Counted from the first letter of the stretch, positions 1-24,643 are shown. The stretch: DNA of 64,000 bases from Pseudomonadota bacterium (GCA_030690985.1 JAUYFG010000312.1:14208-78207); one strand, 5' to 3'. Numbers and translations are program-made. The notes: a model not told the origin generated them from the letters alone.

Positions 1-2732
1 GCCTCGGCGGCGCTGCTTATTACCTGGCCAAAGGCAAGACCAGCCCCGAGCAGCGCATGGCCAGTGCGCAGACCCTGGAACGGGCAGGTGACTTCAAGGG
101 CGCGGCCATCGAATTAAAAAATGTCCTGCAGCAGGCGCCCGGCAATGCCGAGGCCCGATTCATGCTCGGTCACCTGCATTTCTCCAACAATGATTTTGTC
201 AATGCCGAAAAGGAACTGAGCCTTGCCCTGAACAAGGGCTACAAGCCACCGGAAGCCGCGATTCTGCTGGCGCGAACCCTGCTGGTATTACGCCAGCCGA
301 AAAAAATCGTGGATGGGATCAATGTGCTCGAAGGAGCCCCCGCCGAGTCCAATGCCGCGATCCTGGCGATTCGCGCTCAAGCCTATGCCATGCTGGGCGA
401 CAAGAGCAGCATGGAAACCAGCCTGCAACAGGCTGACGCACTCATACCGGAGCACCCCGATACCCTGGCGGTACGGGCTGGTCAAGCCTTCGCCAACGGC
501 CAGCAAGATCAAGCGCTGGCCTTGGTGGAAAAAGCCACGGCCAGGGATGCCAAGCGTGCCGACCTGCAACTCATGAAGGCCGATCTGCTGCGTGCTCAGA
601 AACGCGGTGACGAAGCCATTGCCGCCTATACCAAGGCATTGGCGATCGAGCCCGGTAACCTGGCCGCCCGTCTGGCCGTGGCACAACACTATCTGGCCGT
701 ATCGAATCTCGACCGCGCACAGGCTGAACTGAATATCCTGCGCGGTTATGCGCCGAATAACCTGATGGGGCGCTATCTCGAAGGATTGCTCGATTTCCGC
801 CGCAAAAACATGGATGCCGCCAGCCAGAAACTTCAGGAAGTGCTGCGCGGCGCCCCCGATTTCGCGCCCGCCAACCTGCTGGCCGGCGCCATCGATCTCA
901 GCCAGGGAAAACGTGAGAGTGCCATCAGCCGCCTGAATCGCGTGCTCGAAGCAGCACCTGACCACCCGCTCGCGCGCAAGTTGCTCGCCACCGCCATGCT
1001 GGACTCCGGCCAGGCCGAGCGCGCGCGCGAATTGATCGCCAACCTCAAGAACGACGATAGCGACATTCAGTTGTTGGCATTGCAGAGCAACATCGCCCAG
1101 CGCCTGGGGAACCTTCAGGAGGCGCGCCAGAAACTCGAAAAGGCCTCCTCGCTCGCGCCCGACAATACGGCGCTGATCCGGGAACTGGCCGCGAGCCGCA
1201 TGGCCAGCGGCGACGAAAGCGGAGCGATCGAGGCACTCACCCGATTGGCGGAGAAGGACACCGCCTCGCATCAGGCCGATGTCATGCTGGTCATGACCCA
1301 CCTGAAGGCCAAACGTTATGACGCGGCACTCAAGGCGATCGCCAATCTCGAACGCAGGAACCCTCGCCTCGCGCTCGCCGAGAATCTGCGGGGAGCGGTT
1401 CATATCGCTCGCAAGGATCTCCCACAGGCGCGCCAGAGCTTCGCCAAGGCATTGGCAATCGAACCCGGTTACCTGCCGGCCGCAAGCAATCTGGCCCGCC
1501 TCGACTTGGCCGAGAAGGACATCAAAGCGGCGCGCTCGCGTTTCGAGCAGGTGCTCAAGCATCGCCCGGAGACGGCACGCGCCATGATTGCCCTGGCCGA
1601 ATTGGCCGCTCTGGAGAAAAACGAAGGCGATTATGTGAAATTCATCGAGCAGGCGAAAAAGGCCGACCCCAAAGACGCCACCTCGCGCCAGATGCTCGCC
1701 CGTTACTGGATCTCCAAGCGCGATGCGGGCAAGGCTTTATCCGAAGCGCGGGCTGCGCTCGAAGCCACCGGCAACGCAGGGTTTCATGGTTTGATCGGGT
1801 CCGCCTACACCCTGCAGGGGGATGACGCAAATGCCCTGTCCGCCTACGGGAAATGGGTTGAGGCCGCGCCCAATGACCCGCAGAGCCACTATCAACTGGC
1901 GCTTGCGCAATTCAACGGCAAGGATCGCGCCGCAGCGCTGAAATCCCTGAACAAGGCACTGTCACTGCGACCCGATTATGCTGAGGCCAGCATAAGCAAA
2001 GCGCTTCTGCTCGGCCTGGAAAAGCGTACGGGAGAGGGCCTCAAAATCGCCAGAGAACTCCAGGCACGCGCCCCCAAGGCGGCGGGCGGCTACCTCGCCG
2101 AAGCGGAACTTCTTTCCCTGGACAAGCAATATATGGCAGCCGCCAAGCTCTATGCCAAAACCGCCCAGCTCTCCGGTAACGGCCAACCCCTGGTCAACGC
2201 CTACCACGCCTACGCAGCGGCCGGCCAGTCTGGCGACGGAGAAAAAGCGCTACGACAGTGGCTGGAAGCCAAGCCCGGCGATGGGCGGATTCGGCACCAG
2301 CTCGCTCTGGTTCTACTCAACGACAAACGCCTGAAAGAGGCCGAACCACACTACAGCACCCTGGCACGCGCCAATCCCCGCGATGTGGTGGCCTACAACA
2401 ACCTGGCCTGGTTGCAGGGTGAACTCAACAGCCCGAATGCGGTGGCCACGGCGGAGGCCGCGCTCGCGCTTTCGCCGGACAACCCGGCCACCCTCGACAC
2501 GCTCGGCTGGAACCTGATCAATGCCGGCCAACACCAGCGCGGCCTCGACCTGATCAAGAAGGCTCTGGCCAAATCCCCCGACGCGGCAGAAATCCAATGG
2601 CACCTGGCCGCCGGCTTGAACAAGGCAGGTGACCGGGTGCGTGCCCGCCAGGAAATCGAGCGACTCCTGCGCAGTGGCGTGGCTTTTCCCCAGGAAACCG
2701 AAGCCCGGAAATTGCTCGATAGCCTGAAGTGA
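1..2732 (+). CDS. prsT: PEP-CTERM system TPR-repeat protein (PrsT-like), 5' end outside window
   Basis: The frame stays open upstream of the first Met (57) to the window edge. About 890 aa of consecutive TPR repeats. The N-terminal stretch GKTSPEQR..AGDFKGAAIELKNVLQQAP is colinear with the start of the next ORF. Size and architecture fit the ~900-aa PrsT family. Confidence 0.8.
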   Translation, partial: LGGAAYYLAKGKTSPEQRMASAQTLERAGDFKGAAIELKNVLQQAPGNAEARFMLGHLHFSNNDFVNAEKELSLALNKGYKPPEAAILLARTLLVLRQPKKIVDGINVLEGAPAESNAAILAIRAQAYAMLGDKSSMETSLQQADALIPEHPDTLAVRAGQAFANGQQDQALALVEKATARDAKRADLQLMKADLLRAQKRGDEAIAAYTKALAIEPGNLAARLAVAQHYLAVSNLDRAQAELNILRGYAPNNLMGRYLEGLLDFRRKNMDAASQKLQEVLRGAPDFAPANLLAGAIDLSQGKRESAISRLNRVLEAAPDHPLARKLLATAMLDSGQAERARELIANLKNDDSDIQLLALQSNIAQRLGNLQEARQKLEKASSLAPDNTALIRELAASRMASGDESGAIEALTRLAEKDTASHQADVMLVMTHLKAKRYDAALKAIANLERRNPRLALAENLRGAVHIARKDLPQARQSFAKALAIEPGYLPAASNLARLDLAEKDIKAARSRFEQVLKHRPETARAMIALAELAALEKNEGDYVKFIEQAKKADPKDATSRQMLARYWISKRDAGKALSEARAALEATGNAGFHGLIGSAYTLQGDDANALSAYGKWVEAAPNDPQSHYQLALAQFNGKDRAAALKSLNKALSLRPDYAEASISKALLLGLEKRTGEGLKIARELQARAPKAAGGYLAEAELLSLDKQYMAAAKLYAKTAQLSGNGQPLVNAYHAYAAAGQSGDGEKALRQWLEAKPGDGRIRHQLALVLLNDKRLKEAEPHYSTLARANPRDVVAYNNLAWLQGELNSPNAVATAEAALALSPDNPATLDTLGWNLINAGQHQRGLDLIKKALAKSPDAAEIQWHLAAGLNKAGDRVRARQEIERLLRSGVAFPQETEARKLLDSLK

Positions 2733-5521
2733 TGCTCATGAAACGCCGCATCAGCCCATTCACTCGGGTGCTCCTGGCATTCGCCCTGCTGCTGGCGCTG
2801 GCTGGCTGTGGAAAACAGCATTTCACCACGGAAGAACACATCCAGCGCGCCAAGGATTTCTCCGCCGGCGGCAAGCACAAGGAAGTCATCATCGAACTGC
2901 GCAACGTCCTGCAACAGCAGCCTGACCATCCCCAGGGCAATCTGCTGCTGGCGGAGACCATCCTGAGAATGGGCAACCCCTTCCTGGCGGAGGCGGCCCT
3001 GAACAAGGCACGCCAGGTGGGGGTATCGGCCAAGGCCACGCAGATATTGATGGCCAGGGCACTCATGGCCCAGGGCCGTTTCGAGGATGCGCTGAAGGAA
3101 GCGAAGCTCGACGCCAACGAGCCGCTGGATAACCAGCTCGGCTACATGAATATGCGTGGAGAAGTACTGATGGGCCTGGCGCGTGTCGATGAATCATGCG
3201 CGCAGTTCGATGGCATGCGCCGCCTGCGAGCCGACTACCCCCCCGCCCTGCTAGGCCAATCCCGTTGCGCGGCAGCCAGGAATGACTTCGCGCTATCGCG
3301 AAAACTGGTTGACGAAGCGCTCCGACTTGATGCCGGACACACCGAGAGTTGGGTCCAGCTTGGCCATATGGAACGCGGCCAGGGCCATTACACCGAGGCG
3401 GAAACAGCCTATGGCAAGGCGCTGGCCATCCAGCCCGACGATGTCGACGCACTCATGGGACGTGCCATGGCACGTCTCAAACTGCGCAAGTACGACGCGG
3501 CCAGGAAGGATCTTGAAATCGCCCGTGCCACCATTCCAAGCAGCCCCTTTCCCACCCACATGCTCGGGATCGAGGCCTATTACCATGGCAATTACCGGGA
3601 AGCGAAGATTCATTTCCAGCGCGTGCTCAACGTCCTGCCGGACTATCTGCCAAGCATCTTCTGGCAAGGATTGACCGACCTCAACCTCGACAACGTGGAG
3701 CAGGCAGTCAAGGGGCTCTCCTACTACATGGTGCGCAAGCCCGACGACCAGACCGCCAAGGTGCTCCTGGCCTACGCCCAGGCACGCCAGGGCAACAAGA
3801 TTTCTGCGGAGAAGACCCTCAAGGCGCTGCGCAACCTCGGGCTGGAAGATGCGGCCGTGCTCAGCATGTCCGGGCAAACCTATCTGGCGCTGGGAAAACT
3901 GGAAGAAGCGCAACGATATCTGCGCGAGGCCCTGACGAAAGACCCGAGGAATGTAGAACTGAAACTCAGCCTCGCGGAGTCCCACCGGCAAAAACACGAG
4001 TACGAGGATTTTCTGCGGGAACTCAACGAGGCCGTGGCCCTGGAGCCGGCATCCATCCAGTTGCACAGCCAATATGCCCAGGCGCTCATCGCCCAGGGTA
4101 GAAAAGAGGCGGCCCGCAGCAAGATCGCCGAGATGCGCCGGCTGTTCCCCAAGAGTACTCAACCGCAGTATCTGGAAGCCTCCATGGCACTCAATGCGGG
4201 GGACAGAGCCGGTGCGCGGCAGGCCTTCGAGGACATGCTGAAGATCGATCCCGTGTCAGGCACCGCCTACATGAATCTGGCCCGCATGGATCTGCGCGAA
4301 GGCAAGGTCGAGCAGGCCAAGAAACGCTTCCTGGACCTACGCCGGCGCGATAGCAATAACTACACCGCCCTGATCGGACTTGCCGCCGTTTACTACGCGG
4401 TAAATGACCTCAAGGCGCAGCGGGAGTGGCTGGAGAAAGCGGTCAAAGCGAGGCCCCGCGCGCTCGAACCACTCCTGCTGCTGGCCAAGAATCTGCTGTC
4501 CACCGGCCAGGGCCAGCAAGCCCTTTCTCTCGCAACCCAGGCCTATCAGGCGGAACCGGCCAATCCTGCCACGCTGCAACTTCTGGCCGACGTCCAGAGC
4601 GCCAACGGCGCTCACGACAGCGCGCGTTCTTCCTACACCCGCCTGACCACCCTGACACCAGACGCACCGGTAGCCTGGTTCCAACTGGGACTTGCCCATG
4701 AACGAGCGGGCTTCCGTCAGGCATCCAAGGAAGCGCTACGGAAAGCAATCGAGTTGTCTCCCCGTTATCTCTATGCGCGCCTGGAACTCGCGCGCACCGA
4801 AGCCAAAGATGGCAACTTCAGCGAAGCCCACAGATTGGTAGCCGCGATCAAGAGCGACTCCCCCAAGTCGGCACCCGCTCATCTGCTCGCCGGCGACCTC
4901 TATTCCAGACAGAAAAAACCAGCCGAGGCGCTCAAGGAGTATGAGCAGGGCATGAGCATCAAGCCCTCAACCCAACTGGTCATGCGTACCGCCAGTGCGC
5001 TCCTGGCTCTGGGTAGAGGCGACGCGGCCGAAACCCTGTTACGGCAATGGCTGCAGAAACAGCCGGGGGATCAGATCGTGCGTCTCAACCTGGCAGGACT
5101 GCACGCAAGTACCAGGAAATACGAAGCCGCACTTTCGGAATATGAACAGATCAATCGTGCAGCCCCCAATCGGCCGGAAATTCTCAATGACATGGCCTGG
5201 CTGTACCAGAAGCTGGGAAATGCCACGCGCGCACTTTCGCTATCGGAGCATGCACATAAACTGGCCCCCGAGAACCCGATCTTCATGGACACCTTGGGTT
5301 GGATACTTTTGCAACAAGGTGGGCAGCGGCGGGCGCTCGACCTGCTGGGGAAGGCGGCCAAACTGGCCCCGAAACACCCTGCCATCCAGTACCACTATGC
5401 CGCAGCGTTAGCGCGCTCCGGCGACGTTGAGAAAGCGCGCCAGGTGTTACAACAACTGCTCAAAGTCGCGCCCTCCTTCCGCGAACGAACTGATGCGGAA
5501 ACCTTGTTGAAAGGGCTATGA
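2729..5521 (+). CDS. prsT: PEP-CTERM system TPR-repeat lipoprotein (PrsT-like paralog)
   Basis: 930-aa TPR array with a lipoprotein signal LLLALAGCGK. The start overlaps the upstream stop and is ambiguous (GTG 2729, ATG 2732 or ATG 2738). Confidence 0.8.
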   Translation: MMLMKRRISPFTRVLLAFALLLALAGCGKQHFTTEEHIQRAKDFSAGGKHKEVIIELRNVLQQQPDHPQGNLLLAETILRMGNPFLAEAALNKARQVGVSAKATQILMARALMAQGRFEDALKEAKLDANEPLDNQLGYMNMRGEVLMGLARVDESCAQFDGMRRLRADYPPALLGQSRCAAARNDFALSRKLVDEALRLDAGHTESWVQLGHMERGQGHYTEAETAYGKALAIQPDDVDALMGRAMARLKLRKYDAARKDLEIARATIPSSPFPTHMLGIEAYYHGNYREAKIHFQRVLNVLPDYLPSIFWQGLTDLNLDNVEQAVKGLSYYMVRKPDDQTAKVLLAYAQARQGNKISAEKTLKALRNLGLEDAAVLSMSGQTYLALGKLEEAQRYLREALTKDPRNVELKLSLAESHRQKHEYEDFLRELNEAVALEPASIQLHSQYAQALIAQGRKEAARSKIAEMRRLFPKSTQPQYLEASMALNAGDRAGARQAFEDMLKIDPVSGTAYMNLARMDLREGKVEQAKKRFLDLRRRDSNNYTALIGLAAVYYAVNDLKAQREWLEKAVKARPRALEPLLLLAKNLLSTGQGQQALSLATQAYQAEPANPATLQLLADVQSANGAHDSARSSYTRLTTLTPDAPVAWFQLGLAHERAGFRQASKEALRKAIELSPRYLYARLELARTEAKDGNFSEAHRLVAAIKSDSPKSAPAHLLAGDLYSRQKKPAEALKEYEQGMSIKPSTQLVMRTASALLALGRGDAAETLLRQWLQKQPGDQIVRLNLAGLHASTRKYEAALSEYEQINRAAPNRPEILNDMAWLYQKLGNATRALSLSEHAHKLAPENPIFMDTLGWILLQQGGQRRALDLLGKAAKLAPKHPAIQYHYAAALARSGDVEKARQVLQQLLKVAPSFRERTDAETLLKGL

Positions 5522-5592: not shown

Positions 5593-6804
5593 ATGGCGCG
5601 CACACGCGTCCTGTTTCTCGCAGAGGCGGTAACCCTGGCCCATCTGGCCAGACCCGTCGAACTCGCCTCGGGCCTGTCCAGCGCGGAGTATGAGATCACG
5701 CTGGCCTGCGACAGCCGTTACCGTTCCATCCTGGAGCGGTTGCCGTTCAAGACACTGCCCCTGCACTCACTGTCCAGCGAACGCTTCCTTGCCGCGCTCA
5801 CCCGGGGGCGACCGGTTTATGACAGCGAGACCCTGGAGCGCTATGTCAGCGATGACCTCGACCTGATCGACGCATTCAAACCGGATCTGGTGGTGGGGGA
5901 TTTTCGACTGTCCCTTTCCATCAGCGCGCGTCTGCGCCAGGTGCCCTACCTGGCCATCAGCAACGCCTACTGGAGCCCCTATGCGCGGCAAACCTGGCCC
6001 GTGCCCGCTCTGCCCTACCTCCGCTGGGCCGGCACGACCCTGGGTAGCGCGCTGTTCCGCCTGGCGCGCCCCATCGCCTTTGCGCTGCACACTCGTCCGC
6101 TGAACCGGGTAAGGCGGCGACATGGCTTGCCCTCCCTGGGGAACGATCTGCGCCGTGTCTATACCGACGCCGATTACACCCTGTATGCCGATGTGCCGGA
6201 ATTGACGCCGACCCGCGACCTCCCGGCCCATCACCGCTACCTGGGGCCCATCCTGTGGTCGCCCCCTGCCGCACCGCCGATCTGGTGGGACGCGCTTCCG
6301 GAAGGACTACCGCAGATCTACCTGACCCTGGGCAGTTCCGGGGCGCGTGAACTGCTCCCGACCATTCTCAACGCCCTGGCCAATCTGCCCGTGGCGATCA
6401 TGGTCGCCACGGCGGGCCATGCCACCTCCCTCTCGCACTGGCCGAACAACACGTTTCACGCCGATTATCTGCCCGGCTGTGAAGCGGCGGCCCGCTCCAG
6501 CCTGGTCATCTGCAACGGCGGCAGCCCAACCACCCAGCAGGCGCTGGCGGCTGGCGTGCCGGTCATCGGCATCGCCGGCAACCTCGACCAGCTTTTGAAC
6601 ATGCAGGCAATCACCGCCGCCGGCGCCGGCGCGCTGTTGCGTGTCGATGGCTTCAGCCAGCCTCGCCTCCTGCGCCTCGTGCAGACCTTGCTGAACGAAC
6701 CCCGCTATAAACAATCCGCCCGCCAGGTCAGCGGCTGGTTCGCCCACTATCCGGCACGACCGCGTTTCGCCCAATTGCTGGAGGAAATTCAGTCCTCCGG
6801 ATGA
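5593..6804 (+). CDS. GT1-family (MGT/UDP-glycosyltransferase-like) glycosyltransferase
   Basis: 403 aa. The C-terminal nucleotide-sugar motif region CNGGSPTTQQALAAGVPVIGIAGNLDQLLN is typical of GT-B MGT-type transferases. Confidence 0.65.
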   Translation: MARTRVLFLAEAVTLAHLARPVELASGLSSAEYEITLACDSRYRSILERLPFKTLPLHSLSSERFLAALTRGRPVYDSETLERYVSDDLDLIDAFKPDLVVGDFRLSLSISARLRQVPYLAISNAYWSPYARQTWPVPALPYLRWAGTTLGSALFRLARPIAFALHTRPLNRVRRRHGLPSLGNDLRRVYTDADYTLYADVPELTPTRDLPAHHRYLGPILWSPPAAPPIWWDALPEGLPQIYLTLGSSGARELLPTILNALANLPVAIMVATAGHATSLSHWPNNTFHADYLPGCEAAARSSLVICNGGSPTTQQALAAGVPVIGIAGNLDQLLNMQAITAAGAGALLRVDGFSQPRLLRLVQTLLNEPRYKQSARQVSGWFAHYPARPRFAQLLEEIQSSG

Positions 6805-6834: not shown

Positions 6835-7500
6835 ATGCGCAAGATCAAGCCTGGCCAGGTTCTGGTGTTTTCCACGCTCCTGTCCCTCGCGATTGCCCTG
6901 GCGATCTTGTCTACCCAGTGGCTAGTAGGCGATCTCGGACTGGGAGATTTCCGCGGCATCATCCTGTTGGCGACGGGTGTCGGATTTCTTTACATCTATG
7001 CCATCGCCCTGTACCGCCTGCTCATGGCCCGGTTCCCCCTGTTGCCCGGCGAGGTGCGCCAAGACTCCCGCCAGGAGTTTATCTACCACGTCCATGTGCT
7101 GTTCTACCTGTTGCTGTTCTACCCGGTCATTCGTAGCGGCATTCCTCCCGCCCCGTTCATGCGCCTGTTCTACCAGGCACTGGGCGCCCGTCTCGGCAAC
7201 AACACCTACAGCCAGGGCATCATCCACGACCCGTTGTTCGTCAGCATTGGCCACGATTCCGTGGTGGGCCAGGGCGCGCTGCTGATCCCCCATGTCATCG
7301 AAGGCGATCGGCTCGCCCATTACCCCATCCGCATCGGCGACCACGTCACCATCGGCGCCAACGCCGCCGTGCTCTCGGATGTGGAAATCGGCGACCACGC
7401 CATCGTCGCCACCGGCGCCGTGGTGAAGAAGGGCAGCCGCATCGGCGCCCATGAAGTCTGGGGCGGGGTGCCGGCCCGCTGCATCAAGCGGCTGCAATGA
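6835..7500 (+). CDS. Membrane-anchored hexapeptide-repeat (LbH) acyl/acetyltransferase
   Basis: GGAGG lies upstream of the ATG. The N-terminal ~110 aa are hydrophobic (about 3 TM segments). The C-terminal half has left-handed beta-helix hexapeptide repeats (IRIGDHVTIGANAAVLSDVEIGDHAIVATGAVV). Confidence 0.75.
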   Translation: MRKIKPGQVLVFSTLLSLAIALAILSTQWLVGDLGLGDFRGIILLATGVGFLYIYAIALYRLLMARFPLLPGEVRQDSRQEFIYHVHVLFYLLLFYPVIRSGIPPAPFMRLFYQALGARLGNNTYSQGIIHDPLFVSIGHDSVVGQGALLIPHVIEGDRLAHYPIRIGDHVTIGANAAVLSDVEIGDHAIVATGAVVKKGSRIGAHEVWGGVPARCIKRLQ

Positions 7501-7542: not shown

Positions 7543-8715
7543 TCAGGTACGGCGGCGAGTGAAACTGAAGCCCAGCCCGAGCAGCCCGACACCCAACAGC
7601 GCCAGGGTGGCCGGCTCGGGAATGACGTCGGGAAGCGGTGCCTGGTATTGCGAGCTCACACTCGAGTTGAAGTCCACCTGGCCGACTATGTCAGGCCCTC
7701 CATTGAAGCCTGGGGTACAGGTCGTGTTGGCAGGCAGTGGAACCGGGCAACTCGTTGCATAAGTGGTTACGGGAAAAGTGCCGAAGCCAGGAACCGTGAC
7801 TATCGTGACAATCTTGTTCAAACCGCCGTTCACCTCGCCCGTCACGGGGAGCAGCCCCTGCCCCAAGCCCGGCACGGGCTGTGCCGAAAAGGGGCCATTT
7901 ATGTGACCAGTGGCGCACTGCGGCGCAGAGTTGGCACCACCAATGGCAGCTGTACCCGGATTGGGCGTATAGCAATCCGAGGGATCATTAGTGGCAAACG
8001 GGATGATCATGCCGGTGTTGGAGTAGGTGATCGAAAAACCCGTTTGCCCGGCATGGAAGAAATTCTGGTCGAAGGCCATGCCGGTAGTACCGATTTGCAT
8101 GGAAGATTGCGCGCTGTAGCCACTGATCGATAACTGTCCGGGGTAGTCGTTGCCGTTATTGGTCGTGTCGAGATTGCCCGGAGATGCGTTCGTGAGGGTA
8201 AACGTGCCGGTGGAAGCGCCGCCGCCGGGCTGTGCGACGCCGGACGCACGCAGGATCAATATGCCGTTGTCAAAGCCTGACCCGGAAAGGACGTCGCTGT
8301 CCGGGGTGCTGTCGTAATACATCTCCAGCCAGCCCACACCCGTGGTGGCGAATTGGGCGTAGGTAGAGGTGCCCAGCGTGGAGACCGTCACCTCCGTGAT
8401 CACCTCGGTGAAACGGGCCACCATGGTGATCTCGCCCGCAGTCGGGTTGCTGGCAAGCTTTGCATGGGTCAGGCCAACGAATTCGTGTGGGGTATCGATG
8501 TCAAAGTCAGCCAAATAGTCGTTTAGCCAGCTGGCGATCGCCTGATTGCCGCCCAGGGCAAGAAAACTTGAGCCGGACCAGTCCAAACCACCACCGGAAA
8601 GATTCACAGCCGCCTGGCCACCCGTGCCGTCGTAGTCGAATACCAGCGCGGCCTGGGCACCACCCGCGATGGCCAAGCTGGCAGCCACCAAAGTTGAAAG
8701 CAGATTCTTGCGCAT
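7543..8715 (-). CDS. PEP-CTERM sorting-domain secreted protein (possible flocculation-type substrate)
   Basis: N-terminal signal peptide (AIAGGAQA). The C-terminus VIPEPATLALLGVGLLGLGFSFTRRRT has the PEP motif, a TM helix and a basic tail. The body is rich in Gly, Thr and Ser. AGGAAAG RBS. Confidence 0.9.
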   Translation of the reverse strand: MRKNLLSTLVAASLAIAGGAQAALVFDYDGTGGQAAVNLSGGGLDWSGSSFLALGGNQAIASWLNDYLADFDIDTPHEFVGLTHAKLASNPTAGEITMVARFTEVITEVTVSTLGTSTYAQFATTGVGWLEMYYDSTPDSDVLSGSGFDNGILILRASGVAQPGGGASTGTFTLTNASPGNLDTTNNGNDYPGQLSISGYSAQSSMQIGTTGMAFDQNFFHAGQTGFSITYSNTGMIIPFATNDPSDCYTPNPGTAAIGGANSAPQCATGHINGPFSAQPVPGLGQGLLPVTGEVNGGLNKIVTIVTVPGFGTFPVTTYATSCPVPLPANTTCTPGFNGGPDIVGQVDFNSSVSSQYQAPLPDVIPEPATLALLGVGLLGLGFSFTRRRT

Positions 8716-8775: not shown

Positions 8776-8791
8776 AGCAAGCTACGTGCCA
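8776..8791 (-). promoter_or_regulatory. sigma54 (-24/-12) promoter for the PEP-CTERM protein gene
   Basis: The minus strand reads TGGCACG-TAGC-TTGCT, an exact match to TGGCACG-N4-TTGCW. It lies about 60 nt upstream of the ATG at 8715, in an AT-richer intergenic region. Confidence 0.65.
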
Positions 8792-8928: not shown

Positions 8929-10008
8929 TCAGTTATGAATAAGGAGCCCACCTAAGGGCTTGCGCAGGGAGCGTGCACGGGGCGCGGGGCCGTGCCCGAT
9001 CCGACCCATGAAGAACAGCGCGTCGGCATCACTCAGGCCGGGCATCCGGAGCAGCCGTCGATTCAGGTCGCGCGCGAGGCGCAGGGCGGGTTCGGTCTGG
9101 GTGAAGGTGATCCCGCGTCGGGCATAGCGGCTGAAGATGACCGGTGTCATTTCCGGCTGGATGAACAGGCCAAGGCGGTCGGCAGTCAGCCAGAAACGTT
9201 GCATTGCACGCCCCGCCGCGATGTGGTCGTCCACCTGGACAAGGGGTTTGTCGGCACACAACATGAAGTGCGCGGCACAAAGAAAACCGGGGACAAGATC
9301 AAGTTGCAGGCGGGGCGGGATATGCCCAAAGAGATATTTGTTGAAAAACGCAACGCGTTCCCATCGCTGCATGACCCAGCGCATGAAACGGCTGGTCAAG
9401 GCATCTACACCGACCGCCGCGTCCGGAATCCGATCTTCGCTGTACCTCGCCCCCCATTCGATCACGGCACGATGCACGGCGTAGGCTTCGGGAATGGTCA
9501 GGCGGATTTTGGCGTTGTCGAACATGAATTTCGCCAGGCGCCAGCGCTCACCGGCACCCTCGAACCAGACCACCCGGTAGCCGGCGGGCAGAGCGTCGGC
9601 CAGCGCGCTTTTCTGCTGGGCGGTCAACGCGGTGGTGGACATGGCCCGGCGCTGTACCACGCGGGTCTTGATGTGTGGAACCAGCGGGTCCGACGCGAGA
9701 TCGGCCAGGACGCGCAAATGCACATCAAACAACAGGTGGGTGTCGGGCGTTCCGGGCCTGCGCTGGATTTCGGTAATCCGCCCGGTGGAGGTCGCCGCTA
9801 TCGCCAGAGTTTCCAGCAGGGCGCCGACGGCCAGTTGGCTGGGATGGCCATCCAGGTCGTAGACCACATGGTCACGCGTGTCGAAGCCATGGATCAGCAC
9901 CTGCTCGTCGCCCAGAATCTCGAATGCCCAAGGTTGGGTGTTGTCGCCGCTGGGCGCCCAGCGGGCCAGATCCAGAATGTGTTCGAGATGGGACGGAAGC
10001 GACTTCAT
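8929..10008 (-). CDS. Two-domain nitroreductase-superfamily (Acg-like FMN-binding) oxidoreductase
   Basis: The N-terminal motif LARWAPSGDNTQPWAFEI is typical of the nitroreductase fold, and ~359 aa is twice a single domain. Start chosen at MKSLPSH, 1 nt after the ThiF-like stop. The longer tracked ORF (to 10230) overlaps the ThiF-like gene. Confidence 0.7.
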   Translation of the reverse strand: MKSLPSHLEHILDLARWAPSGDNTQPWAFEILGDEQVLIHGFDTRDHVVYDLDGHPSQLAVGALLETLAIAATSTGRITEIQRRPGTPDTHLLFDVHLRVLADLASDPLVPHIKTRVVQRRAMSTTALTAQQKSALADALPAGYRVVWFEGAGERWRLAKFMFDNAKIRLTIPEAYAVHRAVIEWGARYSEDRIPDAAVGVDALTSRFMRWVMQRWERVAFFNKYLFGHIPPRLQLDLVPGFLCAAHFMLCADKPLVQVDDHIAAGRAMQRFWLTADRLGLFIQPEMTPVIFSRYARRGITFTQTEPALRLARDLNRRLLRMPGLSDADALFFMGRIGHGPAPRARSLRKPLGGLLIHN

Positions 10009-10009
10009 C

Positions 10010-10867
10010 TCACAGCCCGAGTTGTCGCCTGGCAAGCGCGATGGCCAGGCGGTTGATCGGGTGCCGATTGCCGCCAGGACGCCAGGTGTGGGCCATGCGG
10101 TTGCGGTAGCCGTCGAACTGAATGCCGTGCGGCGCGGCCCAGACCTTGCCGCGTCCGAGCAATATCTTGAGTGCTTCGGTCGCCGCGACGCCGGCGCACA
10201 ACGTACAGGCCATGACCGTGGAGGGACCACGATGCTCGCCGAGGTTGACTCGGCCGGGATCGGCCAGATAGACGCGGTGCAGCAGGGCGGGCGCCAGGCC
10301 GACCAGGAAGCGCAGTGCCTTTTCCTGTTCCGGGTGGCCCGCGAGCTGAAAATAGCGCTCGAAGCTCATCTGTCCGGGCAGAAAGTTGAGCAACGCCGCG
10401 CTCATCCCCAGGGGGGCAACGGTCGTGGCGGGAATCCGCTGTTCGGCGCAGTACCTGAACACCGCTTCCCTGGCCTGGAAGGCGAAGAAGTCGAGGCCGT
10501 CGACATAGAGGTCTACCCCCTTCATGAACTCGCCCAGGTTCTCGGCGTTCACGCCTTGCGGAAAGATCGTGATGTCGCAGTCCGGGTTGATGTCCCTTGC
10601 CATCTGGACAAGGACTTCGGCCTTGGGCCGGTCGATACTGGAGAGGGTGGCCCCGGCTTGACGGTTGAAATTGGCCAGCTCGAAGGTGTCGAGGTCGGCA
10701 ATGTGAAAGTGCTGTATGCCGAGGCGTGCCAGGGTCAGGAGGTGGAAACCACCGACGCCGCCCATACCGGCAATGGCGACGCGCTTTTGTGCCAGTAATT
10801 GCTGTTCGGCCTCGGTTACCCAGCCGATATTGCGGGAAAAGGCGGTGCTGTAATCAAAGAGGGGCAT
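10010..10867 (-). CDS. ThiF/MoeB/HesA-family E1-like adenylyltransferase
   Basis: Rossmann loop VAIAGMGGVGG and E1 motif DLDTFELANFNRQ. ATG at 10867; the tracked start at 10873 is TTG. Confidence 0.8.
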   Translation of the reverse strand: MPLFDYSTAFSRNIGWVTEAEQQLLAQKRVAIAGMGGVGGFHLLTLARLGIQHFHIADLDTFELANFNRQAGATLSSIDRPKAEVLVQMARDINPDCDITIFPQGVNAENLGEFMKGVDLYVDGLDFFAFQAREAVFRYCAEQRIPATTVAPLGMSAALLNFLPGQMSFERYFQLAGHPEQEKALRFLVGLAPALLHRVYLADPGRVNLGEHRGPSTVMACTLCAGVAATEALKILLGRGKVWAAPHGIQFDGYRNRMAHTWRPGGNRHPINRLAIALARRQLGL

Positions 10868-10876
10868 CGGCAAGGG

Positions 10877-11668
10877 TTAACGCGCCTCAGCGCGCAACAG
10901 CCGATCCGTGATACGCGCTTCTTCCTGTGCGTCGAAAAAGTAGGGATACAGGGTGCGATCCTGTTTGGCGAGTTCATGATGTCCAGCGACTTCGGCAACC
11001 TTCTTATCGATATCGTCGGCGTGAACCCAGAGCAGGACGGCCGGCGCGTTCACCCGTGGGCACATGCGTTCACCAGCGATTTCCGTAAAACCCAACATCC
11101 GCTTATAGAAAGGCGCGTGAGATGGATTGACCTCGATGATGAGATCCGTGTACTGCCAGATTTTCCGACAATAGATGTAGGCCACATTGAACATGGATGC
11201 CAGAAAACGCTTGGAAGTCATCTTGGTGTCGAGCGCGAACTTGGTGATCTCGGCGACCGAGCCCCCACGCGCGCGAAGAACGTCGATTTCCGCCTTGTAG
11301 AGCGCATCAGCCATCAAACCATTGCCGACATCGAAGCCCAGCGTCATGGTGCCGATCACATGGTCGCCGTGGTAGGTGGCGAGCGTAATGCTGTCGGGAC
11401 AGGAGTTGTGTGTCTGTTGACCCCGTTCGCCGTGATAACCCGCTTCTCCATAGCGTTTCTCCACGAAGAACTTGGCATCGCGACTGCGTTCATCGTTGTG
11501 GGCGAGTCGAATCTTGAACTGATCCTCACGGGTAACCTGCTTCGTGGTGCCCTGGGCATCGCCCTTGCCCTGCCCGCCCACTTCCCGCATGCGGGGAGGC
11601 GATTCGAAGGTGACGATGGTGTTGGCCCAAGTGCGACTGGCCGCCCTGAAACGATCCATCACTCCCAT
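10877..11668 (-). CDS. PEP-CTERM/exosortase-associated N-acyl amino acid synthase (GNAT / autoinducer-synthase-like)
   Basis: About 260 aa. The overall pattern (ATYHGDHVIGTMTLGFD...AEITKFALD...YIYC...IIEVNPSHAPFYKRMLGF) is recognised as the exosortase-linked long-chain N-acyl amino acid synthase family. GGAGA RBS. Confidence 0.7.
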   Translation of the reverse strand: MGVMDRFRAASRTWANTIVTFESPPRMREVGGQGKGDAQGTTKQVTREDQFKIRLAHNDERSRDAKFFVEKRYGEAGYHGERGQQTHNSCPDSITLATYHGDHVIGTMTLGFDVGNGLMADALYKAEIDVLRARGGSVAEITKFALDTKMTSKRFLASMFNVAYIYCRKIWQYTDLIIEVNPSHAPFYKRMLGFTEIAGERMCPRVNAPAVLLWVHADDIDKKVAEVAGHHELAKQDRTLYPYFFDAQEEARITDRLLRAEAR

Positions 11669-11845
11669 CGTTCTATCTCCCCGGATTGGCGTGCCATGAA
11701 CATGTTGTGATCCCTATAAACTAGCCTTTCGGAGTATAGAGAGCATCCGTTCCTATCTCAATTAGCATAGTGCCCCACCAGCATCTCAAATAACGGTGCA
11801 TTACAGCCCTGTTTTTGCCGCTATCTCAGCCGATACAATAGCCGG

Positions 11846-12580
11846 ATGAAAATTGAACTGATAACCAGCGAAGACGCGAACCGCTATCTGGTCAGGCACG
11901 CAACCGAGATTGAACGCGTCCTGCGCGATGTCATGCGGGACAAGGCCATCGTCGCCGCCTATGGGGAGAATGGCAAGGACTTCCTGCTAACCTCCATCAT
12001 CGCCGTGGAAGCGAAGGAAAACGCCCTGTATCTGGGCTATGGCCCGGACGAAAGGCTGAATACCCAATTCCTGGACGCACACAACGCCACCTTCGCCACC
12101 ACGCACGATCAGGTGCGTGTGCAGTTCTCCTGCGGCCACGTCGAGCCTGCCGTGTATGGCCACGAACCGGCGTTCCGGGTTGCGATGCCGAACGAACTGC
12201 TGCGTTTGCAGCGGCGTGAGTATTACCGGCTCGTCACCTCCGTGGTCAACCCGGTGAAATGCATGATCAATGCCGAGGCGGGCATGCTGGAAGCTCTGGT
12301 GGTGGATATCAGCATCGGTGGCGTCGGCATTCTTGCCTACCAGGAAAGCGGCGAGCTGACTGCGGGCGAGACCTATCACGGTTGCCGGGTTTCGCTACCG
12401 GGTTCCGGCGAGTTCGCATTGAGCCTCGCCGTGTGCACCACTTTCGAAATCACACTGAAGAACGGTCGCCACACCCACCGGGCGGGCTGCCAGTTCATCG
12501 ACTTGCCGCCCAGCGTGGAAACCGAGATTCAGCGTTACATCATCCGCGTCGATCGCGAGCGCCGGACGCGCTATATCTGA
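11846..12580 (+). CDS. YcgR-like PilZ-domain c-di-GMP receptor (flagellar brake-type)
   Basis: YcgR-N-like N-terminal half plus PilZ motifs RREYYR (RxxxR) and DISIGGVG (D/NxSxxG). Confidence 0.75.
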   Translation: MKIELITSEDANRYLVRHATEIERVLRDVMRDKAIVAAYGENGKDFLLTSIIAVEAKENALYLGYGPDERLNTQFLDAHNATFATTHDQVRVQFSCGHVEPAVYGHEPAFRVAMPNELLRLQRREYYRLVTSVVNPVKCMINAEAGMLEALVVDISIGGVGILAYQESGELTAGETYHGCRVSLPGSGEFALSLAVCTTFEITLKNGRHTHRAGCQFIDLPPSVETEIQRYIIRVDRERRTRYI

Positions 12581-12591
12581 TCGGCCTGGTT

Positions 12592-14389
<1,798 letters not shown>

Positions 14390-21718: not shown

Positions 21719-23596
21719 TCAGCCCAGCGCCCGCTCGATGAAATGGCGCGGCACCCGGGTACGGGGGACTCGTTCCGTGAACCAGTTACGGACATCCTCG
21801 TCCAGGCCGATGCCGTGCATGTAGTTGTACAGCGCCTTGTTCAAGGCGACACCGAGGGCGTCGTGATCCACTCCGATCGGATCAATAAAGCCGACATCGT
21901 TCCGGGCAAAGGAGACCGGGGGCAAGGTTTGCAACGTGACCCCAAACTGTTCCGGATGCTGGCCGACGGGCGAGTGCACCGTGCAGACGAAGCGATGAAA
22001 AAACCCGGACTGAATGCACCCCGCCGCGAATAGTTGCCGCACGTATTCGAGTGCATCCACCGTGTCCTGTACGGTTTGTGTCGGGAAGCCATACATCAGA
22101 TAGGCGTGGACCAGGATGCCGGCATCGGTGAAGGCGCGCGTCACCCGCGCCACCTGCTCGACCGAGACCCCTTTCTGCATGAGTTTGAGCAGGCGGTCGG
22201 AGGCGACCTCCAAGCCACCGGATACGGCGATGCAACCGCTGTCCGCCAGTTGCCGGCAAAGCTCCGGCGTGAACGACTTCTCGAAGCGGATGTTGCCCCA
22301 CCAGGAAATCGCGCGATTGCGCCGCTGCAATTCCTCGGCGAGCGCCTTCAATGCCTTCGGCGGCGCGGCTTCGTCGACGAAGTGAAAGCCGCTCTGCCCG
22401 GTCTCCCCGATGATGGCCTCGATGCGATCCACCAGCGTGGCGGCGGCGATACCGTCGTAGCGCCCGATGTAATCCAGCGAGACGTCGCAGAAGGTGCACT
22501 TCTTCCAGTAACAGCCGTGCGCAACGGTCAGCTTGTTCCAGCGCCCGTCCGACCAGAGCCGGTGCATGGGGTTGAGCATGTCGAGAATCGACAGATAGCG
22601 ATCCAGCGGCAGGCCGTCCCAGGTGGGCGTGCCCACTTCGGCGAAGGGAATGTCGGGCTCGCCGGCATCGATGTAGCGCACCTCAGCCGCTATGCGCACG
22701 AAGCTCCGCACCAACTTCCCCTGTCCCCGCTCGCCACGCAGGTGCTCCAGCAGGGCCAGCAGCGGGCGCTCGCCATCATCCAGGGTGACGTAATCGAAGT
22801 AATCGAACACCCGTGGCTCGCTCAGTTCGCGTAGTTCCGTGTTGACGAAGCCGCCACCGAGCGCGATGGCGATTTCGGGGTGCTGCGCCTTGATCGCCTG
22901 GGCGATGCGAAACGCCGCATAGACGTTGCCGGGGAAGGGAACCGACACCAGAACGAGGTCTGGCATATGCCGTGCCACGGCCTCCAGGGTGAGGTCGCGC
23001 AGGGTGCTGTCAACCAGGTTGAAGGGCGCCGCAAGCGCCTCGGCCAGGGGTTCGAAGGTGGGCTGGCTTTGCGCGATCAACTCGGCATAGCGCACGAACT
23101 CGAAGCGCGGATCGACGGCTACACGCAGCACATCGGCAACATCGTTCAGGTACAGGGTGGCGAAGTGGCGGGCGCGGTCCTGCACCCCGAGGGCGCCGAA
23201 TGCCCAGGCCAGGGGGTCACCGCCGTCGTCATCCACATAAGCATCGAGGGAAGCGAAGCGCGGCCCTTCCGGCAGGAAGTTCCGCCCGGCGATGCGATGC
23301 CCGATGCTGGGGTCACGCCCCTGCAGGAAGGCCACAGCGGGGGTGATGCTGGCGAGATAGCGGTCGAACTGTGCGGCGAAAGCTTTGAGCAGCGGTGTGC
23401 GCTTCGGCAGCGCCTCGATACAGGTGCGGATCGCCACCAGCCCCTGCGGCGAAAACAGTCTCAGCACCAGGGCCAAGGCGAGATCCTCCTGAACTGCGTC
23501 AACGCCGCGTGAGCGCAGGAAGCCGGTCAGATACGCCGTCGACGGATAGGGGGTGTTGAGCTGGGTCATCGGCGGGATGACGGACAAGACGCGCAT
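21719..23596 (-). CDS. B12-binding-domain radical SAM protein, function unknown
   Basis: N-terminal Rossmann-like B12-binding region. Cys cluster HGCYWKKCTFCD. About 625 aa. ATG at 23596; the tracked start at 23620 is TTG. Confidence 0.7.
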   Translation of the reverse strand: MRVLSVIPPMTQLNTPYPSTAYLTGFLRSRGVDAVQEDLALALVLRLFSPQGLVAIRTCIEALPKRTPLLKAFAAQFDRYLASITPAVAFLQGRDPSIGHRIAGRNFLPEGPRFASLDAYVDDDGGDPLAWAFGALGVQDRARHFATLYLNDVADVLRVAVDPRFEFVRYAELIAQSQPTFEPLAEALAAPFNLVDSTLRDLTLEAVARHMPDLVLVSVPFPGNVYAAFRIAQAIKAQHPEIAIALGGGFVNTELRELSEPRVFDYFDYVTLDDGERPLLALLEHLRGERGQGKLVRSFVRIAAEVRYIDAGEPDIPFAEVGTPTWDGLPLDRYLSILDMLNPMHRLWSDGRWNKLTVAHGCYWKKCTFCDVSLDYIGRYDGIAAATLVDRIEAIIGETGQSGFHFVDEAAPPKALKALAEELQRRNRAISWWGNIRFEKSFTPELCRQLADSGCIAVSGGLEVASDRLLKLMQKGVSVEQVARVTRAFTDAGILVHAYLMYGFPTQTVQDTVDALEYVRQLFAAGCIQSGFFHRFVCTVHSPVGQHPEQFGVTLQTLPPVSFARNDVGFIDPIGVDHDALGVALNKALYNYMHGIGLDEDVRNWFTERVPRTRVPRHFIERALG

Positions 23597-23616
23597 GGAC
23601 TTGGGTTTCAGGTCGT

Positions 23617-24474
23617 TCAAAACGCCTCGCGCAGCCGCAGGAAGGTGGCGAAGCGCGGCAGGCCTTTTGCCGTCAGGCCTCGATAACGATAGGTGATGGT
23701 GGCACCCACGGCGGGCGGATGGTCGCGCTGCGCATCGCTGAAGCCAGCGCCGATGCGCAGACGCCGGCCATCCGGCAATTCCACCCGCAGCGCGCCGAGC
23801 TTGCCGGCATATTTGCCCTTGCCCGGCAGGTGCGCGACGACCACCGCTTCGGCATCGTCCCAGGGCTTCAGCTTGAGCAGATCATCGCTGCGGCCGGCAC
23901 GGTAGAGGGCATCGGCACGATGCAGCATGAGCCCCTCGCCACCGCCCTTCACCACTTCGTCGAGCTTGCGCCGTAACGCCTGCGGATCGGCGATACGCAA
24001 CTGTTCAACTGCCTGCAACTGGGGCAAACCAGCCTTGGCGACGAGCTGGTGCATCGCGGCGACGCGCTCACTGAAACTGCCCTCGCCACCCGGCAATTCA
24101 AACAACAAGTAGCGCACCTGGCGCCATTCAGCGTCATCCGGCGTTTCCTTGCGCACGATGCCGGAAAGTCGCTCGAACTGGCCGCGCCCGATCCACAGTT
24201 CGCCATCCAGTGCCCGTGCCGGGAAACCCTGGGTAAACCAGGCGGGTGCGGCAATCAGGCGGCCGCTGCGGAAGCGCAGTTGCCCGCCATCCCAGACGGC
24301 GCGCACACCATCCAGTTTTTCGCTGACCCAATAGGCGGCCGGGTCGATGCCGGCGCGGTAAACCTCGGCATGTGCCAGAGCGGGGAGTTCGGCCGCAGGC
24401 GCAAACGGCACCAACAGCAGCCAGCCGGCGAACAGACAGGCAAGCCGCAGAAATCTATTCGCCCAGATATTCAT
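23617..24474 (-). CDS. Minimal ATP-dependent DNA ligase with signal peptide (Lig E type)
   Basis: Adenylation motif SEKLDGVRA (KxDG). About 285 aa. N-terminal hydrophobic signal [28 protein letters not shown]. Confidence 0.8.
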
Positions 24475-24643
24475 CGAGCGCATCCGTTTCCTGCACGGGC
24501 AACTTGAACTTCTCATCCGCCCATTCGCCCAGGTCGATCATCTTGCAGCGCTCGCTGCAGAACGGCCGCCAGGTGTTTTCCGGGCGCCATTCCACCGCCT
24601 TGCCACAGGTGGGGCAGGCGACCTTCTTGTATTTCTCCGCCAT
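24455..24643 (-). CDS. yacG: DNA gyrase inhibitor YacG (zinc ribbon)
   Basis: CPTCGK...[15 protein letters not shown] signature; 62 aa. The 3' end overlaps the ligase start by 20 nt. Confidence 0.85.

Follow-up and report, generated by a model that had tools for sequence, protein, structure and literature searches.

The questions raised by this locus are what three closely packed genes on one strand might make together, and why they should lie beside a gene for a PEP-CTERM protein. The genes occupy positions 8929-11668 of a 64,000-nucleotide stretch of DNA from a Pseudomonadota bacterium (GCA_030690985.1 JAUYFG010000312.1:14208-78207), the whole of which is called the window below, and they encode in order an N-acyl amino acid synthase (NAS), a ThiF-like enzyme and a flavin-dependent oxidase, which is a flavoenzyme of nitroreductase fold (FDO, equivalently NTR). 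We consider it very likely that they are a new member of the known acyl-oxazolone pathway of the OxzAB/TyzABC/TrzAS type, and that they would make an N-acyl oxazolone (azlactone) lipid. This assignment is based on profile matches, fold, gene architecture and the published description of an enzyme subcluster.

Open reading frame (ORF) analysis of the window placed the NAS gene at 10877-11668 (-) (263 amino acids), the ThiF gene at 10010-10867 (-) (285 amino acids from an ATG) and the FDO gene at 8929-10008 (-) (359 amino acids), with gaps of 9 nt between the first two and 1 nt between the second and third. Independent gene calls on a public contig of the same DNA (L081) gave proteins of exactly 263, 285 and 359 amino acids, in agreement with the three close minus-strand genes described in an earlier reading made without database searches (the sequence-only reading). 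An alternative in-frame TTG start of the ThiF gene at 10873 (ORF 10010-10873) would shorten the first gap to 3 nt, and the mechanical ORF of the FDO gene reaches 10230, the MKSLPS start at 10008 being taken as the real one. The ATG at 11668 was taken as the NAS start because an N-terminal extension of about 60 amino acids, with the motif MGI.DRF..SR.WA.TIV.F.SP.R, is kept in homologues. Profile searches identified a FeeM-type NAS, a ThiF protein and a nitroreductase, the three gene identities of the earlier reading being right, and the motifs that it had picked out, GMGGVGG and DLDTFELANFNRQ in the E1-like enzyme and APSGDNTQPW in the flavoenzyme, were all found in the window proteins.

The NAS matches PF21926 (FeeM) at 4e-47 and the FeeM structure PDB 2G0B at 2.4e-14, so that a synthase with an acyl-homoserine lactone (AHL)-synthase/FeeM-like fold is encoded 9 nt upstream of the ThiF gene, and it would be the functional counterpart of OxzA, TyzA and TrzA. 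The sequence-only reading had placed this protein among the synthases genetically linked to exosortase systems; the synthase identity stood, but the family did not, as the NAS gave no match to TIGR03694 (exosortase-associated acyltransferase, cutoff 112 bits) even at E<=10, and a true member used as a positive control (L040 17873-18619) scored 229 bits. TIGR03694 membership was rejected on this ground.

The second protein matches PF00899 (1.5e-43) and scores 441 bits with NF006077, whose cutoff is 266; it also aligns with the ThiF portion of two fusion models, PRK14851 (293 bits) and PRK14852 (248 bits). Its nucleotide site is intact, with GMGGVGG (GxGxxG), NRQ and RPK motifs, and its D128 aligns with D127 of E. 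coli ThiF; the corresponding residue of TrzS is D217, and TrzS D217A yielded no cyclised product (PMC12856293). The closest solved relative is TcdA (CsdL, 2.3e-18). These features suggest a TyzB-like, ATP-dependent cyclase, encoded 1 nt from the FDO gene. A different activity, the activation of a molybdopterin or thiamine sulfur carrier, is implied by the 'MoeY' annotation found in public databases, and the name 'sulfur-carrier protein adenylyltransferase' and a weak similarity to ThiF and MoeB models point the same way, but we regard its probability as negligible. The ThiF and MoeB equivalog models score 83 and 71 bits on the protein, far under their cutoffs of 275 and 449, the protein is without the paired CxxC zinc motifs of MoeB/ThiF (a single CxxC, CTLC, lies in a conserved C-terminal helix), there is no ThiS/MoaD, moa or thi gene nearby, and Rv2338c (TyzB, formerly 'MoeW') and Rv1355c (TrzS) proved to be oxazolone enzymes (PMC10404671; PMC12856293). 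A ThiF/MoeB sulfur-carrier identity is in effect refuted for this protein.

The flavoenzyme matches PF00881 and the Acg-family FMN (flavin mononucleotide) oxidoreductase model NF047509 (1.9e-30), and also the C-terminal half of the model for Rv1355c (positions 376-715, 2.3e-29) and positions 328-616 of PRK14851 (3e-20). No solved protein is close to it in sequence except the Acg homologue 2YMV, which was also the best whole-chain fold match in the PDB (Foldseek, TM 0.68/0.74) to an AlphaFold (AF2) model built on 36 homologues with a pLDDT of 95.9, and which has been reported as the closest structure to the FDO domain of TrzS (PMC12856293). Judged from this model, the flavoenzyme is a monomer with a double nitroreductase fold of FMN type, so that profiles and predicted structure together give a TyzC-like, Acg-like monomeric double-fold oxidase, and the two-domain nitroreductase of 359 amino acids that had been proposed from the sequence is confirmed. 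The protein is 100% identical to a public protein from a metagenome-assembled genome (P0001) that is named 'molybdopterin biosynthesis protein MoeY', and fused homologues (P0198, P0289) carry public names of the 'MoeY' or 'sulfur-carrier protein adenylyltransferase/sulfurtransferase' type, while the NCBIfam model for Rv1355c (TrzS), below whose cutoff the fused ThiF-NTR representatives fall, is named only 'Rv1355c family protein'. The 'MoeY' and 'sulfur-carrier adenylyltransferase' labels are inherited misnomers for oxazolone-pathway enzymes, and the present assignment corrects a widespread mis-annotation. A tblastn search of PLSDB plasmids with the flavoenzyme gave no match.

The sequence-only reading knew of no characterised pathway with this composition, which does not hold, since acyl-oxazolone biosynthesis has already been reconstituted in vitro and was established in 2021-2025. 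Its guess at the chemistry, in which the free carboxylate of an N-acyl amino acid is adenylated and the lipid is modified further, matches experiments on OxzB, TyzB/TyzC and TrzS (10.1101/2020.06.11.147165; PMC10404671; PMC12856293). OxzA (an N-acyltransferase) and OxzB (a ThiF-nitroreductase fusion) gave tyrazolones and phenazolones from N-acyl amino acids in an ATP-dependent, reconstituted reaction (10.1101/2020.06.11.147165), M. tuberculosis TyzA, TyzB (a stand-alone ThiF protein) and TyzC (a stand-alone FDO) lead to C12:0-tyrazolone (PMC10404671), and for TrzAS the fusion enzyme contains FMN and cyclisation precedes desaturation (PMC12856293). A 2025 review gives OxzB as the only ThiF-like enzyme known to have a small-molecule substrate. 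TyzC falls in subcluster FDO-A23, which covers Actinobacteria, Betaproteobacteria and Hydrogenophilalia and in which a ThiF gene usually adjoins (PMC10404671), a taxonomic make-up that fits the closest relatives found here, Thiobacillus and Tepidiphilus, and so gives indirect support.

By homology with these systems the FeeM-type NAS would acylate the alpha-amino group of a probably aromatic amino acid, taking the fatty acyl group from either acyl-acyl carrier protein (acyl-ACP) or acyl-CoA. The ThiF-like enzyme, with ATP and Mg, would then adenylate the carboxylate, and attack by the amide oxygen would close a 5(4H)-oxazolone ring, after which the Acg-like flavoenzyme (with FMN and O2) would desaturate the C-alpha/C-beta bond to give a conjugated 4-arylidene oxazolone, a compound that would be readily hydrolysed to an N-acyl-dehydro amino acid. 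Homology is the basis for all three steps; the window itself supplies the domain families, an intact site for ATP, a fold of FMN type and the layout of the operon.

The question of whether the three genes belong together was approached through related loci, for which one genome per GTDB species was scanned, giving at least 591 flavoenzyme relatives, and the best 80 loci (52-69% identity) were analysed, 59 of which are 'long' loci of at least 15 kb; counts of neighbouring genes are by tblastn. In clustered collections the flavoenzyme has more than 3,600 relatives (90% clustering) and 2,408 at E<=1e-3 among 50% cluster representatives, and among the best 150 of these representatives stand-alone proteins of about 360 amino acids are interleaved with fused proteins of 650-680 amino acids. 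The best 80 loci come from Thiobacillus, Hydrogenophilales, Nitrosospira, Nitrotoga, Methylophilaceae, Janthinobacterium, Duganella, Massilia, Roseateles, Methyloversatilis, Marinobacterium and others. ThiF adjoins or is fused with the FDO in 70 of the 80 (53 as separate genes, 11 as one-ORF fusions and 4 divergent), and 26 have the full FeeM-NAS>ThiF>NTR trio in colinear order, so that the co-occurrence of the three genes as neighbours extends well beyond the window and their arrangement is not due to chance. The NCBIfam fusion models add to this, with the window ThiF protein aligning to positions 23-296 and the window FDO to positions 328-616 of PRK14851 (679 amino acids, ThiF plus NTR), and the window NAS to positions 81-215 and ThiF protein to positions 313-587 of PRK14852 (989 amino acids, NAS-like plus ThiF). 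On these alignments the two models act as Rosetta stones for the trio.

Several observations weigh against an acyl-oxazolone assignment and were considered together. Neither the Rv1355c nor the PRK14851 model is matched above its full-length cutoff, which is expected for half-proteins and is no proof. The NAS is of FeeM type, and FeeM uses acyl-ACP whereas OxzA, TyzA and TrzA use acyl-CoA. No NAS of either type (FeeM or TIGR03694) was found within 10 kb in 29 of the 59 long loci, mostly from Oxalobacteraceae; in such loci the conserved core is ThiF-FDO with a PEP-CTERM gene and a glycosyltransferase or acyltransferase, and ThiF-NTR has no strict need for an adjacent NAS. Lastly, the producers of kyonggic and thalassotalic acids, which have an identical three-gene operon, gave N-acyl-dehydrotyrosines and no oxazolones (PMC12479983).

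This last result bears on whether the same enzymes might have as their end product an N-acyl-2,3-dehydro amino acid, possibly glycosylated, with the oxazolone as a short-lived activated intermediate, lost by hydrolysis or by transfer to a nucleophile. Such an outcome would also fit the hydrolysis of oxazolones within hours at pH 8 and in acidic work-up (10.1101/2020.06.11.147165; PMC12856293) and the coupling of a small-molecule glycosyltransferase of family GT1 and an acyltransferase to the NTR gene in many relatives. Against it, extraction free of acid and alcohol showed oxazolones in native C. chukchiensis, P. rubra, M. tuberculosis, M. smegmatis and R. jostii (10.1101/2020.06.11.147165; PMC12856293), and an ATP-consuming cyclase would be wasteful if its ring were simply hydrolysed. 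We judge a dehydro amino acid end product to be possible, though on the unlikely side.

The absence of a nearby NAS from many loci bears in turn on whether the ThiF-like enzyme acts on a peptide or protein, adenylating a ribosomal peptide, or the neighbouring PEP-CTERM protein, at its C-terminus, with the NTR working like the McbC/SagB azoline dehydrogenases. Most characterised ThiF-like enzymes do use protein, peptide or tRNA carboxylates (PMC12596934), and ThiF-NTR stays beside PEP-CTERM genes even without a NAS within 10 kb. Nevertheless, the flavoenzyme matches only Acg-, Rv1355c- and PRK14851-type models and there were no matches to SagB (TIGR03605) or to cyclodehydratases, profile searches found no YcaO protein within 20 kb of the operon, and there is no plausible ORF for a precursor peptide or a ThiS/MoaD-like carrier in the 1-9 nt gaps or the flanking spacers. 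Furthermore, the PEP-CTERM anchor is lost outside the cytoplasm after export, beyond the reach of a soluble ATP-dependent enzyme, and the NAS is translationally packed with ThiF in the 26 colinear loci, and PRK14852 models the two as one fusion. A maturation role is therefore highly improbable, and the analogy with peptide maturation drawn in the sequence-only reading was not upheld. Maturation of an azoline-containing ribosomally synthesised and post-translationally modified peptide (RiPP), or of a thiazole/oxazole-modified microcin (TOMM), was set aside as a candidate, with no YcaO, SagB-type dehydrogenase or precursor ORF.

With acyl-oxazolone biosynthesis as the very likely function of the three genes, there remains the question of the PEP-CTERM gene beside them. 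This gene (7543-8715, -) matches TIGR02595 and PF07589, as the sequence-only reading had supposed, encodes a sorting-domain protein with a PepA-like C-terminus, and is the sole PEP-CTERM ORF in the window. A sigma-54 -24/-12 promoter element, TGGCACGTAGCTTGC, lies at 8777-8791 (-), 61 nt upstream of its start and within the 213-nt spacer after the flavoenzyme gene, and no other exact match occurs in the 64 kb of the window. Beyond the PEP-CTERM gene, on the opposite strand, are a hexapeptide-repeat acyltransferase gene (HexAT; 6835-7500, +; PF00132) whose product has a hydrophobic N-terminal half, and a gene for a GT1-family (MGT/EryCIII-like) small-molecule glycosyltransferase (GT; 5593-6804, +; PF06722, PF00201, TIGR01426), the closest solved proteins to which are the small-molecule glycosyltransferases CalG1, UGT202A2 and UGT2B. 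The hydrophobic half of HexAT also matches part of the Pls/PosA nonribosomal peptide synthetase terminal-domain model TIGR02353 (9.7e-19). Next to the GT are two tandem prsT paralogues (57-2732 and 2729-5521, +), encoding tetratricopeptide-repeat lipoproteins of the XrtA/PEP-CTERM system, which overlap by 4 nt, encode proteins about 28% identical to each other and score 654 and 629 bits with TIGR02917, the window edge truncating the first at its 5' end. On contig L081 a 945-amino-acid PrsT is preceded by PrsR, the sigma-54 PEP-CTERM-box response regulator (TIGR02915; L081 2-634), just beyond the left edge of the window. The order is thus prsR (outside the window), prsT, prsT, GT and HexAT, and on the opposite strand the PEP-CTERM gene, FDO, ThiF and NAS, which is an XrtA/PEP-CTERM neighbourhood with PrsR, two PrsT proteins and a sigma-54-dependent PEP-CTERM gene, the linkage being conserved across taxa. 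No XrtA core, Lol-like or TIGR03694 genes were found in the 64-kb window by tblastn.

It may be asked whether the adjacency is coincidental, with the oxazolone operon serving on its own as a cluster for a stress or signalling lipid and placed next to the prsR-prsT region by chance. The two units seem, on consensus matches, to have separate promoters, which weighs against a joint system: 65 nt before the NAS start the operon has a candidate sigma-70-type promoter (TTGAGA-17-TATACT, 11733-11761, -) that agrees with the consensus at 10 of 12 positions, and no sigma-54 promoter of its own was found, the single exact site in the window serving the PEP-CTERM gene. The window is Thiobacillus-like, and its Rep and HemB proteins are 96-98% identical to those of an uncultured Thiobacillus while the flavoenzyme is only 67% identical, and DNA similarity of 80-83% to the closest Thiobacillus-like genomes (L003, L004) covers rep, hemB, pilZ, NAS, ThiF and most of NTR and then ends abruptly near 9100, at the 3' end of the flavoenzyme gene, so that the PEP-CTERM/GT/PrsT side is a variable region. 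The OxzAB and Tyz/Trz loci of the literature also have other neighbours; some oxzB genes do cluster with glycosyltransferases, with no PEP-CTERM context reported (10.1101/2020.06.11.147165).

The related loci argue the other way. A hidden Markov model of the PEP-CTERM tail was built for them, which gave no reversed-sequence matches at >=10 bits, and it found 79 PEP-CTERM ORFs in 1.41 Mb. A PEP-CTERM gene lies within 10 kb of the FDO gene in 51 of the 59 long loci, across many families and in differing gene orders, and within 1.5 kb in 34, and the position is specific, with 48 of the 79 genes at 0-2 kb and 18 at 2-4 kb on the 3' side of the FDO gene, as against only 3 in the 668 kb sampled on its 5' side. 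A sigma-54-like element (at most 1 mismatch) precedes 37 of 66 PEP-CTERM genes near NTR, where 0.058 would be expected per region. GT homologues are present in 42 of the 59 long loci, directly 3' of the FDO gene in 11, some of these neighbours having a stop/start overlap suggested by ORF calls, and HexAT homologues are present in 19 of the 80 loci, directly 3' of NTR on the same strand in 9. PrsT and XrtA core genes (TIGR03027, TIGR03007, TIGR03018, TIGR03016, TIGR03015) recur around related loci, and a true TIGR03694 synthase is encoded near ThiF-NTR in 18, directly upstream of ThiF in 3. About 24 loci have, beside the TIGR03694 acyltransferase and ThiF-FDO, a Lol-like module of two MacB/LolCE-like permeases, a LolD-like ATPase, a LolA-like protein (PF17131) and a DUF1302 protein (for example L040 6544-8990 + 14797-18619; also L006, L008, L011, L014, L015, L017, L023 and others), which by its sequence looks like a lipid or lipoprotein export route. 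Since gene order varies between families, the PEP-CTERM linkage is more than inherited synteny. The position-specific linkage of the oxazolone enzymes to sigma-54 PEP-CTERM genes and to a Prs/XrtA neighbourhood is real at the genomic level, where the tie to PEP-CTERM sorting suspected earlier is strongly supported by conserved synteny, and a coincidental adjacency is thus improbable. As far as the literature was searched, no paper links ThiF, nitroreductase or oxazolones to exosortase, and the Aquincola pepA-prsT study has no mention of ThiF, NTR or NAS genes.

What the linkage might mean is a matter for weaker argument, drawn from the conserved neighbours, but members of this clade may decorate the product further and use it in the XrtA/PEP-CTERM floc/exopolysaccharide system. 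We put forward, tentatively and as a proposal more likely to fail than to stand, that in this clade of beta- and gammaproteobacteria the oxazolone module (ThiF and FDO with a NAS of FeeM or TIGR03694 type) is a dedicated part of this floc system, acting via a decorated, exported azlactone lipid. In such a scheme the self-activated azlactone lipid would be glycosylated by the GT1 enzyme, acylated by HexAT and exported by the LolCDE/LolA/DUF1302-like apparatus, and outside the cytoplasm, where there is no ATP, it could serve as an acyl donor or acceptor for the lipidation of exosortase-processed PEP-CTERM proteins or of exopolysaccharide; alternatively the azlactone could be a signal that switches on floc formation. 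If true, this would give a role to two orphans, the bacterial oxazolones, whose biological role is called unknown in the papers that characterise them, and the exosortase-associated N-acyl amino acid synthases. As the enzymes belong to a pathway that is already defined biochemically, the possible importance of the locus lies in its PEP-CTERM context, and the linkage to PepA-type floc genes, GT, HexAT and a Lol-like exporter across many genera makes a concrete hypothesis, open to genetic tests in relatives that can be grown in culture, Janthinobacterium, Duganella, Methyloversatilis and Roseateles among them.

On its other side the operon faces a divergent gene for a YcgR-like PilZ protein, a cyclic di-GMP (c-di-GMP) receptor (11846-12580, +; PF07317, PF07238), which keeps this position in 13 related loci. 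Genes for GGDEF-EAL and HDOD proteins lie close by in Duganella loci, and c-di-GMP turnover genes adjoin trzAS in M. tuberculosis (PMC12856293). A search of Rfam over 5-14 kb found no RNA family in or beside the operon, the sole match there being an unrelated anti-hemB small RNA (RF02837; 13698-13805, +; 61 bits against a gathering score of 49.5), which is found immediately upstream of the oppositely oriented hemB gene (12592-13611, -) and overlaps the yihA ORF at its 3' end. Further away, beside an ATP-dependent DNA ligase gene (23617-24516), the window encodes a B12-binding radical SAM protein of 633 amino acids (21719-23620, -), with weak matches to PhpK-type P-methyltransferases and RiPP C-methyltransferases.

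Set beside known systems, the locus shares something with each of several. The NasY-type NAS enzymes are reportedly PEP-CTERM/exosortase-associated (TIGR03694; Craig, Cherry and Brady 2011), and the TIGR03694 family is likewise one of N-acyl amino acid synthases genetically linked to exosortase loci, whereas the window NAS differs in being of FeeM type (PF21926). TcdA, the tRNA ct6A dehydratase, resembles the window ThiF protein as an ATP-dependent cyclodehydratase that closes an oxazolone ring on an N-acylated amino acid moiety, although its substrate is t6A in tRNA and it has neither a flavoenzyme partner nor a NAS. The layout of the genes is like that in Massilia kyonggiensis and Thalassotalea (sp. 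PP2-459), where a split NAS-ThiF-nitroreductase operon with gaps of <10 bp has been described (PMC12479983), and in the stieleriacine cluster of Stieleria, the three clusters being split three-gene operons with gaps of <10 bp or overlaps, and one of the hosts is a betaproteobacterium; these clusters were assigned by comparative genomics to N-acyl-dehydrotyrosines, unlike the reading given here, and exosortase context was not discussed. The OxzA/OxzB system of Pseudoalteromonas rubra and other proteobacteria has, as the window does, a NAS followed by ThiF and nitroreductase activities, but OxzB is a single ThiF-nitroreductase fusion and the window has separate genes. TyzABC (Rv2336, Rv2338c and Rv2337c) is like the window in consisting of three separate proteins, a FeeM-like NAS, a stand-alone ThiF protein and an Acg-like FDO, and TyzC, at about 360-372 amino acids, is a stand-alone FDO like that of the window (359 amino acids). 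It differs in that tyzA is divergent from tyzBC, whereas the window trio is colinear with gaps of 1-9 nt, and in that its neighbours are cysK, cysE and mmpL9, whereas those of the window are prsR and prsT, a glycosyltransferase gene, an acyltransferase gene and a PEP-CTERM gene.

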